From: Octopus vulgaris
Taxonomy: Eukaryota
Length of the DNA stretch: 64,000 nucleotides
Direction of reading: 5' to 3'
NCBI GenBank assembly: GCA_951406725.2
Contig: OX597825.1
Location: 78,616,001-78,680,000 of the forward strand
Part shown: piece after piece, positions 32,241 to 57,667 of the stretch
Layout of the letters: each line of letters begins with the position of its first letter
Numbering within the stretch: position 1 is the first letter of the stretch
Notes under the pieces: model-generated
The model's input: the letters and a program-made list of their open reading frames with translations, nothing else
What the model was told of the DNA's origin: nothing
The model's database searches: none
Made by a program: the position numbers and the translations under genes

Positions 32241-32637
32241 ATGAGGTATCCAAAATGGCGAAATACCTTTCTACTGCTGGTGATTTCGCTGGCCATTATG
32301 GCATCGTTGGTCAACGGAAGAAGGCGGAAAAACAGAAACAGGAAACGAAGCTCAAATTCAAGATATATGAGTGACTTTGCAGTCCGTAGAAACTTCGTTA
32401 TTGTCTCGGGTGACATTTATTTTGGAGCGTTAATACAAATTCACAATGGTGGAAGAAATGACATTTGTGGGAATTTATCTCATACGGCTATACTGGAACT
32501 TGAAGCTCTGCTATATACAGTGGAAATGATAAATATTCATACATCTTTACTGCCGGGCATCAAATTGGGGGTTTATGTACGAGACACGTGTGCAGACCCG
32601 GATCATGCTTTAAAACAAGCCTTAACCATTATGGAGG
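32241..32637 (+). CDS. mGluR-like class C GPCR, first coding exon (signal peptide and start of Venus-flytrap domain)
   Basis: ATG 32241 opens MRYPKWRNTFLLLVISLAIMASLVNG (signal-peptide-like), then VSGDIYFGALIQIH..DICG..LEALLYTVEMIN..LLPGIKLGVYVRDTC, matching the mGluR pattern GD-x-x-x-G-L-F-x-x-H...C...EAM...IN...LLP-x-I-x-LG...DTC. Acceptor ttctatttgcag ends at 32182 (exon starts 32183 in the 5'UTR). Donor G|GTAAGT after 32637 (phase 1). Confidence 0.92.
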
Positions 32638-32983
32638 GTAAGTAATATAACCATTTTATTTTTCTTCTAGATATAATTAATGAAAATGTTGCTTCTTATT
32701 ACGTTCTGTGTTTTCTAGGTATTATTAGTAAGAGGAAGGAAGGAGCGAGCTGGCAGAATCGTTAGCACCCCGGGTAAAAATACTTATCAGCATTTCATCC
32801 GCTTTTACATTCTGGACTCAAATTCCGCCGAGGTCGATTTTGTCCTTCATTCATTCGAGCTCGATGAAATAAATCCCAGTCAAGTACTTCCCTTCCCCTT
32901 ATAATTGCAGGCCTTGAGTTAAAACTAGAAAGACTAATTAGTAAGACAGAACAGAAGAAGAAATCTTCGTAACTTTTACAGAT

Positions 32984-33530
32984 AGGAGTGGCTGTGTGGT
33001 AAGTAGCTTCCTTACCAACCACATGGTTCCGGGTTCATTCCCACTGCATGGCACCTTGGGCAAGTGTCTTCTACTATAGCCTCAGGGCCACCAAAGCCTT
33101 GTGAGTGGTTTTTGTAGACGAAACTGAAAGAAACCCATAGAATATATGTGTATATGTATATGTGCGTGTTTGTATGTGTGTGTGTCTATGTTTCCCCCCC
33201 CCCCCAACATCGCTTGACAACCGATGCTGGTGTGCTTACGTCCCCATACATTAGCGGTTCAGCAAAAGAGACCGATAGAATAAGTACTAGGATTACAAAG
33301 AATAAGTCCTGGGGTCGATTTGCTCTAATAAAGGCGGTGCTCCAGCATGGCCAAAGTCACATGACTGAAACAAGTAAAAGAGTATAAGAGAGTATACTCT
33401 TGCAGCTCGGCAAAAGAGACCGATAGAATAAGTACTGGGCTTACAAAGAATAATCCTGGAGTCGATTTGTTCGACTACAGGCGGTGCCCTAGTATGGTTG
33501 CAGTCAAATGACTGAAACAAGTAAAAGAAA
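32984..33530 (+). mobile_element. SINE family B with duplicated 3' tail
   Basis: Collinear with family B; tail segment repeated at 33408-33527. Confidence 0.8.
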
Positions 33531-34134
33531 AAAATATAGTTCATATGTACAAAATCCAGAAGACAGAGACAGGTGAGGGAACAACGCACAAGGTGTATTA
33601 GTTTGACGCTCAGAGAAAAATGGAAAAAATTTTGACGCTTGAAGTCTACGCTCTTCGACAGAAAGGAATGAGGAAAGAAACGGACAGAGAGAAAAAATTG
33701 TATCTGGATTGACAGTTTCACACGTCAAATTGAGTGGAAGGAAGTGATTGAATGGAAAGGGAGATAACAATAACACGACTAAAGTGTGTGCGTAAACGCG
33801 TGTGTGTATGGGAGGATGGTATGTGTGAGTGTATATCTGCGTATGGGCGAGCGCGTGTGCATGTATGTGTGCGCAAGTATAAGATTATGTAAGGGAGCGT
33901 GTGTGTGTGTGTGAATGTGTTAGTAAACAAGTACGTTCGCTGTATTCATGTGTGCATACGTGTATTCATGTGTGCATACGTGTGGACATGTGTATATGTG
34001 TGAGGCTATCAGATATGTGTGTGTGTGTGTGTGTGTGCGTGTGTGTGCGTGTGTGTGTGTGTGCGTGTGTGTGTGTGAGAGAGACACTGTTGTGTGCGTG
34101 TATATTACGTGGTTATGCATAAATACTCTTTTCT

Positions 34135-34503
34135 AGGCACAAGGCCCAAAATTTTGGGGGAAAGGGCCAGTTGATTAGATCGACCCCAGAACACAACTGG
34201 TACTTAATTCATCGACCCCGTAAGGATGAAAGGCAAAGTCGACCTCGGTGAAAATTTGAACTCAGACGAAATACCGATTTCTTTACTACCCACAAGGGGC
34301 TAAACACAGAGAGGACAAACAAGGACAGACAAACGGATTAAGTCGGATATATCGACCCCAGTGCGTAACTGGTACTTAATTTATCGACCCCGAAAGGATG
34401 AAAGGCAAAGTCGACCTCGGCGGAATTTGAACTCAGAACGTAGCGGCAGACGAAATACCGCTAAGGATTTTGCCCGACGTCCTAACGATTCTGCCAGCTC
34501 GCC
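34135..34503 (-). mobile_element. SINE family A, dimeric
   Basis: Two tandem family-A bodies in reverse orientation. Confidence 0.8.
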
Positions 34504-35298
34504 AACTTTTTATGTGTAAATATTGTGTGTTTATGCGTACGTGTGTATATATATATGGGCTTGCGTGTATGTATGTAAGCTGTTACCAGTTGGTGTATGG
34601 GGGGGAGGGCTGTTGAATATATTTTGTGTGTATGTGTATGCGTATGTGTGTATGAGTGTGTGTGTGTGTGTGAGGAGTTGATATGTGCGTAATATTGCGT
34701 TTGACCATATGTGTAAGGGCGCATGTATGTATATGTAACGCTATCTGACGTATGCACATATATGTTGCGGGAGGTGCCTGGATGTTTGAGGTGGAATAGG
34801 GGTGATGAGGGGAAGGGTTGGGAGGTGTTGGGTGCTGGTGTGAGGGGAGTGGGAAGAAGCGTGCGTGAGTGCGTGTGCATTTGGTGTGTGTGTAGAGACG
34901 ATGTGTTAGGGCAGAGAAGGAGGGGAAACGGAAGGTGGGAAGTGTGTGTTGTGTGTAAATATCTTTGTGGTGGGGGGTTTGCTTTTGAGACACCTGAAAT
35001 TAAGTTCCCTCACCTGTATCTGTCTTTTGTCTTTTGTACATTTGCTCACGTGGTCACCCCACTTTGATCCGGGCTGACCTGGACTTCTTCCCTTGGACCT
35101 TCATCTCTCATACCTTCTTCTCGGACCTGTGTTACCTCTCTTGAGCCACTTTGCCATCACTCCAGCCGGATTACCATTGGAACTTTACATTTCTCGGACT
35201 CTACCATCATGGATTTTACTGTACACTGTTGTTGGTTAATTTATGTGTGTGTGTGTAGGTGTGTGTGTGTAGGTGTGTGTGTGTAGGTGTGTGTGTGT

Positions 35299-55286: not shown

Positions 55287-56123
55287 CTAGCAGAACCTGT
55301 GAATATTTCAAGGAATTAATGGTAAACTTATTGGGTTATTTCTGAAAACTTTATCCAAAAAAAAACTGAAAGCGTAGCCTGTGTCGCGTCTGTATCAAAA
55401 GATAGTCGCTCATCTGCAAATCATTGAAAAGTGAAAGAACTTGGAATACGATGATTATTTAATGCACTTTATATAAACACTCTATAGACTTTATGCACAA
55501 TTTTATAGACTTAATACACAGCACTCATGAAATAAATATTCACTCCAATTTTTCCATTTTTACCATAAGCAAAAAATATTTCGTACATATGATACAATCT
55601 TTAGTTAAATTGCATATGTCTACCGCGTAAATAAGCTTGAATATTAGTTCAATTAAAAAAAATACACTTCTCACTATCCAATCCCCACCGCCACCTCCAC
55701 CTCCACCACCTCTATCTCCACCACCACCACCAGCACCACCATCATCATCTCTCTCTCTCTCCCTCTCCCCCTCTCTCTTTCCCTCCTCTTTCTCTCCCTC
55801 TCCCTCATCTCTCTCCTCTCTCCGCTTTTCTTTAACCTCACTATCAGAACATCACTCCTCTGCTAAAATTATATTTTTAACTCTCCTCCTCTATATCATC
55901 CCTACTTTCAACTAACTTTTTTAACCGCGTAATAAATATTACGTTCCCCTACCACGCTTCTCTCTCCCTCTTTTTCTCTCTCCCACTTTTTCTCTTACTC
56001 TCTTTTTCTCTCTCCTTCTCTTTCTCTCTCTCCCCTCTTTTCTTTCTCCCTCTTTTTATCTAATCACGTGAAAGCGTTACCGACGGGCTAAGTAACGGAA
56101 CGACAAGCAGAATTATTATAAGA
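55287..56123 (-). mobile_element. Possible degenerate Helitron-like element with internal CT-rich tract
   Basis: Ends a|ctagcag at left and ttattataaga at right, resembling CTAG 3' and TC 5' ends on the minus strand; single copy, degenerate. Confidence 0.3.
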
Positions 56124-56184
56124 CGTGTATGTGCGTGTGTGTGGGTGTGTACTTATATTTATATACACTAATAATTAGAATATA

Positions 56185-56416
56185 TATTTCTTTACTATCC
56201 ACAAGGGACTAAGCATAGAGGGGACAAACAAGGACAGACAAAGGGATTAAGTTGATTATATCGATCACAGTGCGTAACTGGTACTTAATTTATCGATCCC
56301 GAAAGGATGAAAGGCAAAGTCGACCTCGGCGGAATTTGAACTCAGAACGTAACGGCAGACGAAATACGGCTACGCATTTCGCCCGGCGTGCTAACGATTC
56401 TGCCAGCTCGCCGCCT
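56185..56416 (-). mobile_element. SINE family A with 16-bp TSD
   Basis: TSD taataattagaatata at 56169-56184 and 56417-56432. Confidence 0.88.
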
Positions 56417-57527
56417 TAATAATTAGAATATAATTAACCTGATAGCATAAGTGTTCCGAACTAAAATTTAAAATACTCCGACAGTCATTGATACACATCG
56501 CATAAGTTCCTCAAATTTCGAGAGACTTTCTGTATTCAGCGGCATCAAAGACAATGGTATATCTCAGAGAGGTTTCGAAAGATCTGTAGAACATCTTGTA
56601 TTCCAAGACTTCACAGATATGGTACATCTCGAACAAGCTTCTAACTATCTATGGAATATTCTATGAAACATCTTTTATCCTTTGCCATGCTGGGGCAGCG
56701 CCATGAATTTTTAGTCGAATGAAATAATCCAAGGACTTATGTTTTAAGCCTGGTACTTGTTCTATCGATTTTTTATGCCGAACTGCTAAGTTACGGCGAC
56801 GTAAACACACCAACATCTGTTGTCAAGTTAATTTCACAAGCAGGTTGTTTCGTTGATCGGATCAACTGGAGCCCTCGTCGTCGTAACCGATGGGGTGCCA
56901 GCAAGGAAGGGATGGTTCCGACTGGAAGGCCTTATTTCATAAGTTTACTGAATCAAGGCTGGCTGAGGTGTACACATCAACAACAACAACAACAATCAGT
57001 ACATGTAAGTCAACGTGTATTTATTCTCCGTTCATACACACACATACACATACTCACACACACACACACATACATACATACACTCTCTCTCACTTTAACT
57101 CTCTCCCGCTCCTTCTACCCCTCTCTCTCTTACACACACACACACTCTCACTCTCTCTCACTCTCTCTCCCTTTCTTTTTCTCTCTCTCTCTCTTACGTA
57201 CACACGCACTCTCTCTTTAACTCCCTCTTACTCTCCCCCTCTATCTCACTCTCTCTTACACACACTCTCCTTCTCCCTCCCTTACTCCTCCTCTCTCTCT
57301 TACACACACACACACACACACTCTCTCTCACTCTCTAACTCTCTTTTCCTCTCCCTTTCTTTCTCTCTCTCTCTCTCTTACGCACACACACTCTCTCTCT
57401 TTAACTCACTGTCCCTCTCCCCCTCTATCTTACTTATCTTACTCTCTCCCTCTCTCTCTCTCTCTTACACACACACACATAAAGTGTTTCCGGTGTTTCT
57501 CAATTTGTTTTCTCGTCCAACCACCAG

Positions 57528-57667
57528 GTGTCCTCATAGTAACGGAATCTGACGAGACTGCGGCGGCGATCATTGCCGGTGTGAAGCGCCAGGGAGGAAG
57601 TCGACGAATCGCGTTTCTTGGAATTGGTTGGGGAAAGAATATCAAATATTCAGGTATTGAAAACGAG
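57528..57667 (+). CDS. mGluR-like class C GPCR, coding exon 5 (gene continues beyond the window)
   Basis: ccaccag|(G)VLIVTESDETAAAIIAGVKRQGGSRRIAFLGIGWGKNIKYSGIENE|GTGAGT. Compare mGluR VVVCFCEG...RR.G...F..IGSDGW....GYE.E. 140 nt, phase 1 to 0. No further exon recognised up to 64000. Confidence 0.88.

Follow-up and report, generated by a model that had tools for sequence, protein, structure and literature searches.

Class IV metabotropic glutamate receptors (mGluRs; the Drosophila mXR/Mangetout type; Ramos-Vicente et al. 2018, PMC6307864; this and the other papers are cited here from part of their text) carry an extracellular Venus flytrap (VFT) domain and a nine-cysteine domain (CRD) on a seven-transmembrane (7TM) domain with a cytosolic tail, and are defined by residues that are either acidic or non-polar at the mGluR1 positions R78 and K409 (PMC6307864). 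Acetylcholine-binding protein (AChBP) of molluscs is the ligand-binding ectodomain of a transmitter-receptor family encoded by its own gene with the membrane part absent, and its secretion by glia has been reported (PMC4569296); mammalian mGluR splice variants lacking the 7TM are reported to be dominant-negative or postulated to be soluble (PMC5405051); and the invertebrate Venus kinase receptors reuse a class C-type VFT, with a changed ligand, outside G-protein-coupled receptors (GPCRs), on a transmembrane helix and kinase (PMC4026697). Here we describe a gene of Octopus vulgaris that begins in a 64 kb stretch of the genome (hereafter the window; C12:78616001-78680000, contig OX597825.1) and whose product combines a class IV-derived VFT and CRD with a new hydrophilic tail in place of the 7TM and cytosolic tail.

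Gene structure, transcription and domain architecture

Five coding exons with AG/GT ends lie in the window (Table 1) and, as an earlier sequence-only reading of this DNA had claimed, splice in frame to 338 stop-free codons, which equal the N-terminus of the annotated O. vulgaris protein P0006. With 150 kb of downstream DNA added, the complete gene was found to comprise nine exons encoding 931 amino acids, the translation matching P0006 exactly; the codons beyond the first 338 are downstream of the window, past whose end the gene extends by 35 kb.

Pfam matches above the cut-off were limited to ANF_receptor and NCD3G (P0001-P0004 and P0006). The VFT was recognised by PF01094 (E 6e-43) together with mGluR fold matches, and the nine-cysteine domain by PF07562 (40.0 bits against a cut-off of 38.9), its nine cysteines lying at residues 537-590. 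The 7TM domain PF00003 was not found in the protein (by Pfam or hydropathy), in the locus, in its genome vicinity or in relatives (two further octopods and Logan records). The sole hydrophobic stretch of P0006 spans residues 6-27 (hydropathy score KD19 1.84), and past residue 600 there was no hydrophobic window, the best KD19 being 0.44 in P0006 and 0.26-0.55 in three relatives compared to 2.47-2.57 in class IV controls (n=2). In exon 9 the nine-cysteine domain passes without an intron into 341 hydrophilic residues and then the stop codon. Where the first transmembrane helix (TM1) would start there is instead a 20-residue motif, whose identity within the family is 85-95%; behind it comes a hydrophilic tail rich in Lys, Ser and Thr (32% Ser/Thr) with basic patches. 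N-glycan sequons number 23 in P0006 and 11-16 in three relatives.

An AlphaFold model based on a 15-sequence alignment placed most of the VFT and CRD at pLDDT 70-90, with the tail below 50 and disordered from residue 596. The best structure matches of the model were mGluR ectodomains; mGlu3 was the best PDB match (E 2.7e-76) and mGlu5 the match by Foldseek. The fit was slightly closer to apo or antagonist-bound ectodomains (rmsd about 4.1) than to some agonist-bound ones (6-7), to which there are exceptions, and was not used as evidence; a two-copy prediction of the VFT (residues 50-515), run without an alignment, scored 0.03 and has no bearing either way.

More than half of the exon 9 words were present in 20 of the 24 listed sequencing runs, 14 of these 20 being guessed to be RNA (none is recorded as RNA, and the runs carry no tissue labels). 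Four of the guessed-RNA runs, from four studies, were mapped on the exon 9 region. In each of them the acceptor base of exon 9 is the first base of a contig, with the first two intron bins uncovered, and the stop codon is crossed by a single contig in three and by three overlapping contigs in the fourth. Three of the contigs extend 5' of the acceptor by 1647-1669 letters, a length that would fit the 1551 coding bases of exons 1-8 plus a short untranslated region (UTR). The gene is intact, with 931 open codons and none of the downstream stops expected of a pseudogene, and appears to be transcribed.

Gene model P0001 alone uses a donor inside exon 9, leading to an AT-rich alternative exon from L009:9951 (C12:78719951) onwards. 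Among the contig rows listed (145 loose-end rows lie beyond these) no joint left the coding part of exon 9 and none supported P0001, so that this alternative last exon is unsupported there.

A 7TM profile, built from 16 class C 7TM regions of the 19 proteins offered, was run unfiltered in six frames over 234 kb around the gene; the best match had E 0.82, compared to 3.5e-117 for a class IV control exon, and a frameshifted TM1 behind the last cysteine was likewise not seen. Genome-wide, 18 PF00003 matches were found among the 85 best-scored candidates, none of them on C12 beyond 69.9 Mb, while each of four other genes matched by exon 1 had a downstream PF00003 match (4/4). The main product very probably lacks a 7TM. 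It is not a class C GPCR or a member of an mGluR group, because the defining feature, the 7TM, was looked for and is absent.

It had been proposed from the five exons that the gene encodes an orphan class C GPCR, possibly a chemoreceptor or a ligand-free partner like GABA-B2, that is, a ligand-free VFT on a 7TM that couples to G protein. All three readings need a 7TM and fall with the full gene, which is without one; they would be rescued only by a 7TM on an unseen exon or in a rare isoform. Room for such an exon is offered by class IV introns, which reach about 300 kb and so exceed the 115 kb read behind the stop, by the alternative 3' end of P0001 and by a genome search that scores the best candidates only. 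In the class IV gene, however, TM1 shares the exon of the cysteine domain, and here that same exon runs into the hydrophilic tail and a stop; no 7TM remnant was found in the 234 kb or further along C12 in the range given above, nor any 7TM in the four full-length family records scanned. These receptor readings are largely refuted and we regard them as very improbable.

Binding pocket

Numbering of mGluR1 was carried over via a vertebrate mGluR1 homologue aligned to PDB 7dgd_A (offset 30, inferred), and the roles of the pocket residues follow PMC4026697 and PMC6307864. Alignments to mGlu3 and among 36 class C ectodomains, including groups I-IV, placed Glu at R78, Lys at S186, Arg at T188, Tyr at D208 and Ile at D318 (Ile324, codon at 57623), while Y236 and E292 are retained as Tyr239 (52203) and Glu298 (57545). 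These replacements and retentions agree with those read earlier by eye, as do the codons concerned (GAA for Glu at 32496, AAA for Lys at 52053, CGG for Arg at 52059 and TAC for Tyr at 52119). In addition, Asp420 was found at the K409 position by MAFFT alignment, in an exon beyond the window. The residues that contact the distal carboxylate in mGluR groups I-III, Arg78 and Lys409, are therefore absent (Glu86, Asp420), as are the amino-group residues Thr188, Asp208 and Asp318 of groups I-IV (Arg191, Tyr211, Ile324); the D318 site is Ile or Leu across the family.

The loop bearing S165 had been described as rebuilt with loss of the serine. The rebuilding was borne out, as the loop carries a one-residue insertion, while the loss is less clean: S165 pairs with Ser167 by HMMER and with Pro168 by MAFFT. 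Since the AlphaFold helix begins at Pro168, loss is favoured, and S165 has probably given way to Pro168.

The charge reversal at R78 is likewise real, and it is as a novelty that it does not stand, because the gene descends from a class IV mGluR (see below) and the change is an inherited trait of that class (PMC6307864). From the aligned residues, R78E and K409D are class IV traits, and the loss of T188, D208, D318 and probably S165 is new; class IV mGluRs keep all four of the latter, which are lost or shifted in the octopus protein. With respect to mGlu1-8 (groups I-III), the protein shares the ectodomain fold, all structural cysteines, Y236 and E292, and differs in R78E, K409D, T188R, D208Y and D318I, in the lack of a 7TM and in introns unlike those of three canonical octopus genes. 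Judged by this rewired pocket, binding of glutamate or of an ordinary amino acid is unlikely, in line with the earlier proposal.

Across four family members, 9 of 10 pocket sites (both S165 candidates counted) are invariant, against an invariant share of 57% for the VFT (P 0.03). None of the 17 cysteines is lost in the family (17/17), which bears out the earlier statement that the structural cysteines are retained, and they include Cys145, which aligns to mGluR1 Cys140, presumably the inter-subunit cysteine.

Descent and family members

An octopus class IV (mXR-type) mGluR gene was located at C12:69203264-69898112, on the same strand and 9 Mb away, covering about 700 kb with introns of up to about 300 kb. 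Exon by exon it matches a Lottia class IV protein at 44-78%, and it retains the canonical class IV pocket, with Ala for R78 and Gln for K409. All eight introns of the present gene coincide with the first eight of this class IV gene (8/8, offset 0, same phase). Of these introns, judged by eye, the canonical mGluR genes of octopus, three in number, have 0, 1 and 1, the one in common being intron 7. The class IV gene has TM1 in the exon of the cysteine domain and the remaining 7TM in the next exon. The ectodomain is 33% identical to that of the octopus class IV receptor, and the best BLAST matches of the protein are class IV mGluRs (32-34%).

Phylogenetic analysis was performed with IQ-TREE (LG+C20) on 36 chosen VFT+CRD sequences, most group labels of which rest on the tree and on pocket motifs. 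The family fell within a class IV-like clade (100/99), beside the mXR type (86/82), on a stem of 2.3 changes per column; this supplied the phylogeny that had been suggested as a check on the first reading. Shared gene structure and clade placement support class IV descent, and the best reading of the family is a class IV mGluR duplicate that has lost its 7TM. Several points weigh against it. The family's position in class IV carries no star (86/82), for nesting with molluscan class IV the AU test yields no more than a lack of rejection (p-AU 0.12), and in an earlier FastTree analysis of 213 domains, each covering more than 330 profile positions, the family fell next to group I (0.945). Union with group I was rejected both by the AU test (p-AU 0.001) and by the mixture-model tree.

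Other VFT-bearing sequences were encountered in these searches. A class C gene at C25:3.56-3.68 Mb has several tandem VFT domains on a 7TM, one domain having, as in the present family, a Ser-Pro loop and Lys at 186; a link to the present family was unsupported by tree or BLAST rank. A VFT in a single exon at C4:145393730-145394929 (-) has an amino-acid backbone motif that looks canonical. On C4 the PF00003 match closest to it is about 19 Mb off, so that this may be another 7TM-less gene or a VFT protein that is no GPCR. Two class IV-like proteins with eroded pockets, P0057 and P0092 (one of them from the spider Nephila pilipes), have models that stop after one transmembrane helix, with the caveat that a 977-residue isoform exists, and possibly reflect independent decay of class IV copies. 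Ten tandem-VFT proteins (P0027-P0029, P0034, P0045, P0062, P0082, P0088, P0091 and P0126), mostly with few or no transmembrane helices, form a clade of their own. The ESM Atlas returned generic VFT clusters only.

Word-based searches recovered the gene from Octopus vulgaris, O. sinensis, O. bimaculoides and Argonauta hians, as well as from Logan records that are 61-62% identical over VFT+CRD. The named range of the family is the octopods; the sequence distance of the Logan records suggests squid or cuttlefish. No 7TM is present in the full-length members examined, whose C-terminal part is a hydrophilic tail. Identity to the distant members is 79% over residues 50-210, compared to 17-19% for the tail. 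In a library of 1.84 billion proteins, 3 of the best 150 matches were family members (P0004, P0015, P0111), and no member was seen among the named gastropod, bivalve or chiton records (10 of the best 150 matches looked up). Best identity to the family VFT+CRD falls from at least 80% to at most 38% with a gap between (180 stored proteins, 178 of them aligned over at least 60 residues). Annotated models are truncated or split in octopus records; the gene appears in databases as 'metabotropic glutamate receptor 3/6-like' or is split with its second half named 'mucin-5AC'.

A decaying truncated duplicate without function would account for the long stem branch and for the loss of both the signalling domain and the canonical pocket. 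It is hardly compatible with 931 open codons over nine exons, with the VFT+CRD identity and complete set of cysteines kept in distant members, or with the contigs seen in runs from several studies (92 contigs are on record for the P0009 sequence), and we consider it the most improbable of the alternatives. Rapid change and then strong conservation is a course more in keeping with a new function than with decay.

Predicted function and features of the window

Secretion is predicted because the protein has a VFT and a nine-cysteine domain, a hydrophilic tail and no 7TM, and it is likely that the product is released or matrix-bound outside the cell. We lean, with some reserve, towards a class IV mGluR paralogue acting as a predicted secreted VFT-CRD glycoprotein, a soluble binder of a non-glutamate ligand in the manner of AChBP. 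A class IV gene duplicate would have lost TM1 and the 7TM exon, changed rapidly along the stem and then come under strong constraint. Its N-terminal hydrophobic stretch would serve as a cleaved signal peptide, with cleavage after Gly26 expected from the small-residue rule; the 17 cysteines would fold a normal ectodomain, and Cys145 may join two copies by analogy with mGluRs. The tail would be glycosylated and either hold the protein in the extracellular matrix or be cut at a conserved basic motif behind the cysteine domain. Because acidic residues occupy the Arg78 and Lys409 sites and basic residues stand where mGluR1 binds the amino group, the cleft might accept a ligand of reversed polarity, which is the weakest step of the proposal. 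Such a ligand would be buffered or presented outside the cell, as acetylcholine is by AChBP.

The likeness to AChBP is one of design: the octopus protein has its own gene, consists of ectodomain only and has a signal peptide predicted from hydropathy. The folds are unrelated (AChBP is of the Cys-loop type), and AChBP keeps the ligand of its parent while the octopus pocket is rebuilt. The mammalian splice variants are isoforms of receptor genes with a normal pocket, whereas the octopus protein comes from a dedicated gene and has its own conserved pocket, a full cysteine domain and a long tail. Venus kinase receptors mostly keep Ser165 (PMC4026697) and differ from the octopus protein probably in this as well as in their helix and kinase.

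Whether binding of a small molecule or peptide in the cleft is the main job of the protein is evenly balanced in our judgement. A secreted ectodomain could instead bind proteins, as a decoy or modulator of the class IV or another class C receptor or as a bridge between a cell-surface partner and the matrix, its cleft being plugged by Lys, Arg and Tyr. The most conserved block, residues 150-215 (86% invariant), spans helix C as well as pocket sites, and helix C is part of the mGluR dimer interface; Cys145 is kept, and the 7TM-less splice forms (PMC5405051) offer a precedent. However, with 33% identity to the octopus class IV receptor a retained heterodimer interface is doubtful, and Glu86, Tyr239, Glu298 and Asp420 are invariant though outside the conserved block. 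This protein-binding role is the main alternative and is rather unlikely.

A membrane-tethered protein, in which the N-terminal stretch stays uncleaved as a type II anchor and the VFT serves as a co-receptor or adhesion module, is consistent with a stretch of about 20 residues (KD19 1.8-2.3) modelled as one helix (residues 5-24). Against this, the stretch occupies the ancestral place of the mGluR signal peptide and in all four members terminates in a small-residue motif that is invariant. The basic cluster on its C-terminal side disfavours an N-in orientation under the positive-inside rule, and no GPI-like C-terminal end was found in the protein sequence. Tethering is accordingly improbable.

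The secreted-binder reading has to be set against several observations. The RNA contig evidence is placed on exon 9, the splicing of exons 1-8 being suggested solely by 5' length, and one gene model, P0001, departs early from exon 9 and continues into a small exon that is mildly hydrophobic (best KD19 1.4). Pocket invariance is weak by itself, as the four sequences are two related pairs and the sites are not independent, and residues 150-215 hold half of the pocket sites in a block that is conserved throughout. A cleft that has Lys189, Arg191 and Tyr211 may be occupied by side chains of the protein itself. Behind the signal peptide comes a strongly basic stretch, and the peptide could remain in place as an anchor. 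Secretion is a prediction, and ligand and tissue are proposals, from sequence. With these in mind, we put forward tentatively, as a possibility, that this cephalopod secreted, matrix-anchored VFT with a charge-reversed pocket is the first dedicated soluble class C ligand trap and an equivalent of AChBP on the GPCR side, released by glia or gland and buffering or presenting a signal molecule other than glutamate or a standard amino acid.

No description of the gene was found in the full-text literature searched, including by accession numbers; most subscription journals are outside that scope. In PMC9712504 a gene named 'grm3' serves as marker of an octopus glial type. The present locus is named 'mGluR3' or 'mGluR3-like' in two octopus annotations, and other genes may bear that name; no gene identifier among the entries searched ties the glial 'grm3' of that paper to the locus, and it may well be the canonical C11 receptor. 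The squid atlas PMC12240821 names families Grma-Grmi and Grms, which are not defined in the rows listed of its table, and one of these labels may cover the present gene. There was no mGluR entry among the entries listed of an ink proteome supplement, and no entry for the gene among those listed of an O. bimaculoides optic-lobe supplement. A cephalopod GPCR survey gathered class C members by PF00003 (PMC6408891, part text), and a survey of this kind would skip a 7TM-less gene. Because databases name the gene as an mGluR or as mucin-5AC, 'mGluR' expression in cephalopod atlases may sometimes represent a non-signalling protein. If the product is indeed secreted and ligand-binding, it would be a novel means by which signals outside the cell are shaped in nervous systems that are the largest among invertebrates and, as a VFT-CRD soluble by nature, one that lends itself to expression, crystallisation and de-orphaning; it may also point to the ligand chemistry of class IV receptors.

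Table 1. Features of the octopus gene in window coordinates (genome position on C12 = 78616000 + window coordinate)
Feature	Position	Strand	Content
Coding exon 1	32241..32637	+	Codons 1-133: start codon and predicted signal peptide, then a basic linker and the beginning of VFT lobe 1; equals P0001/P0006 N-terminus
Predicted signal peptide, residues 1-26	32241..32318	+	Sole hydrophobic segment of the protein; hydropathy and model helix 5-24
Glu86 at mGluR1 Arg78 position	32496..32498	+	GAA codon; alignments; class IV trait (PMC6307864, part text)
Coding exon 2	50424..50581	+	Cys145, rebuilt S165 loop (Ser167 at 50525, Pro168 at 50528), helix C
Coding exon 3	52044..52214	+	Lys189 (S186), Arg191 (T188), Tyr211 (D208), Tyr239 (Y236 retained)
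Coding exon 4	54344..54491	+	VFT lobe 2, Cys257
Coding exon 5	57528..57667	+	Glu298 (E292 retained), Ile324 (D318 lost)
Intron 5 start	57668..64000	+	Gene continues past the window
Exons 6-8	76307-76600, 79563-79668, 80244-80380	+	Asp420 at K409 position
Exon 9	97379-98623 (L009:3379-4623)	+	Nine-cysteine domain, conserved 20-residue motif, 341-residue hydrophilic tail, stop

Simple tandem repeats make up about 17.5 kb of the 64 kb window. Broken LINE reverse-transcriptase-like fragments were noted at 39215-39913 (-), 37382-37606 (-) and 19396-19858 (-), with a weak zf-RVT match below the cut-off (E 0.012), as was a broken fragment at 29548-29969 (-) that by eye resembles the N-terminus of a Tc1/mariner transposase and had no Pfam match. 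A short interspersed repeat family has many copies in the introns and also occurs in the 3' UTR (L009:4720-4860), where read depth is very high. Finally, part of the end of exon 4, with its donor, recurs as a degenerate copy at 53085-53250, 1.36 kb upstream of the genuine one (54440-54600), with the identical donor motif at 53128 in the copy and at 54486 in the genuine exon.

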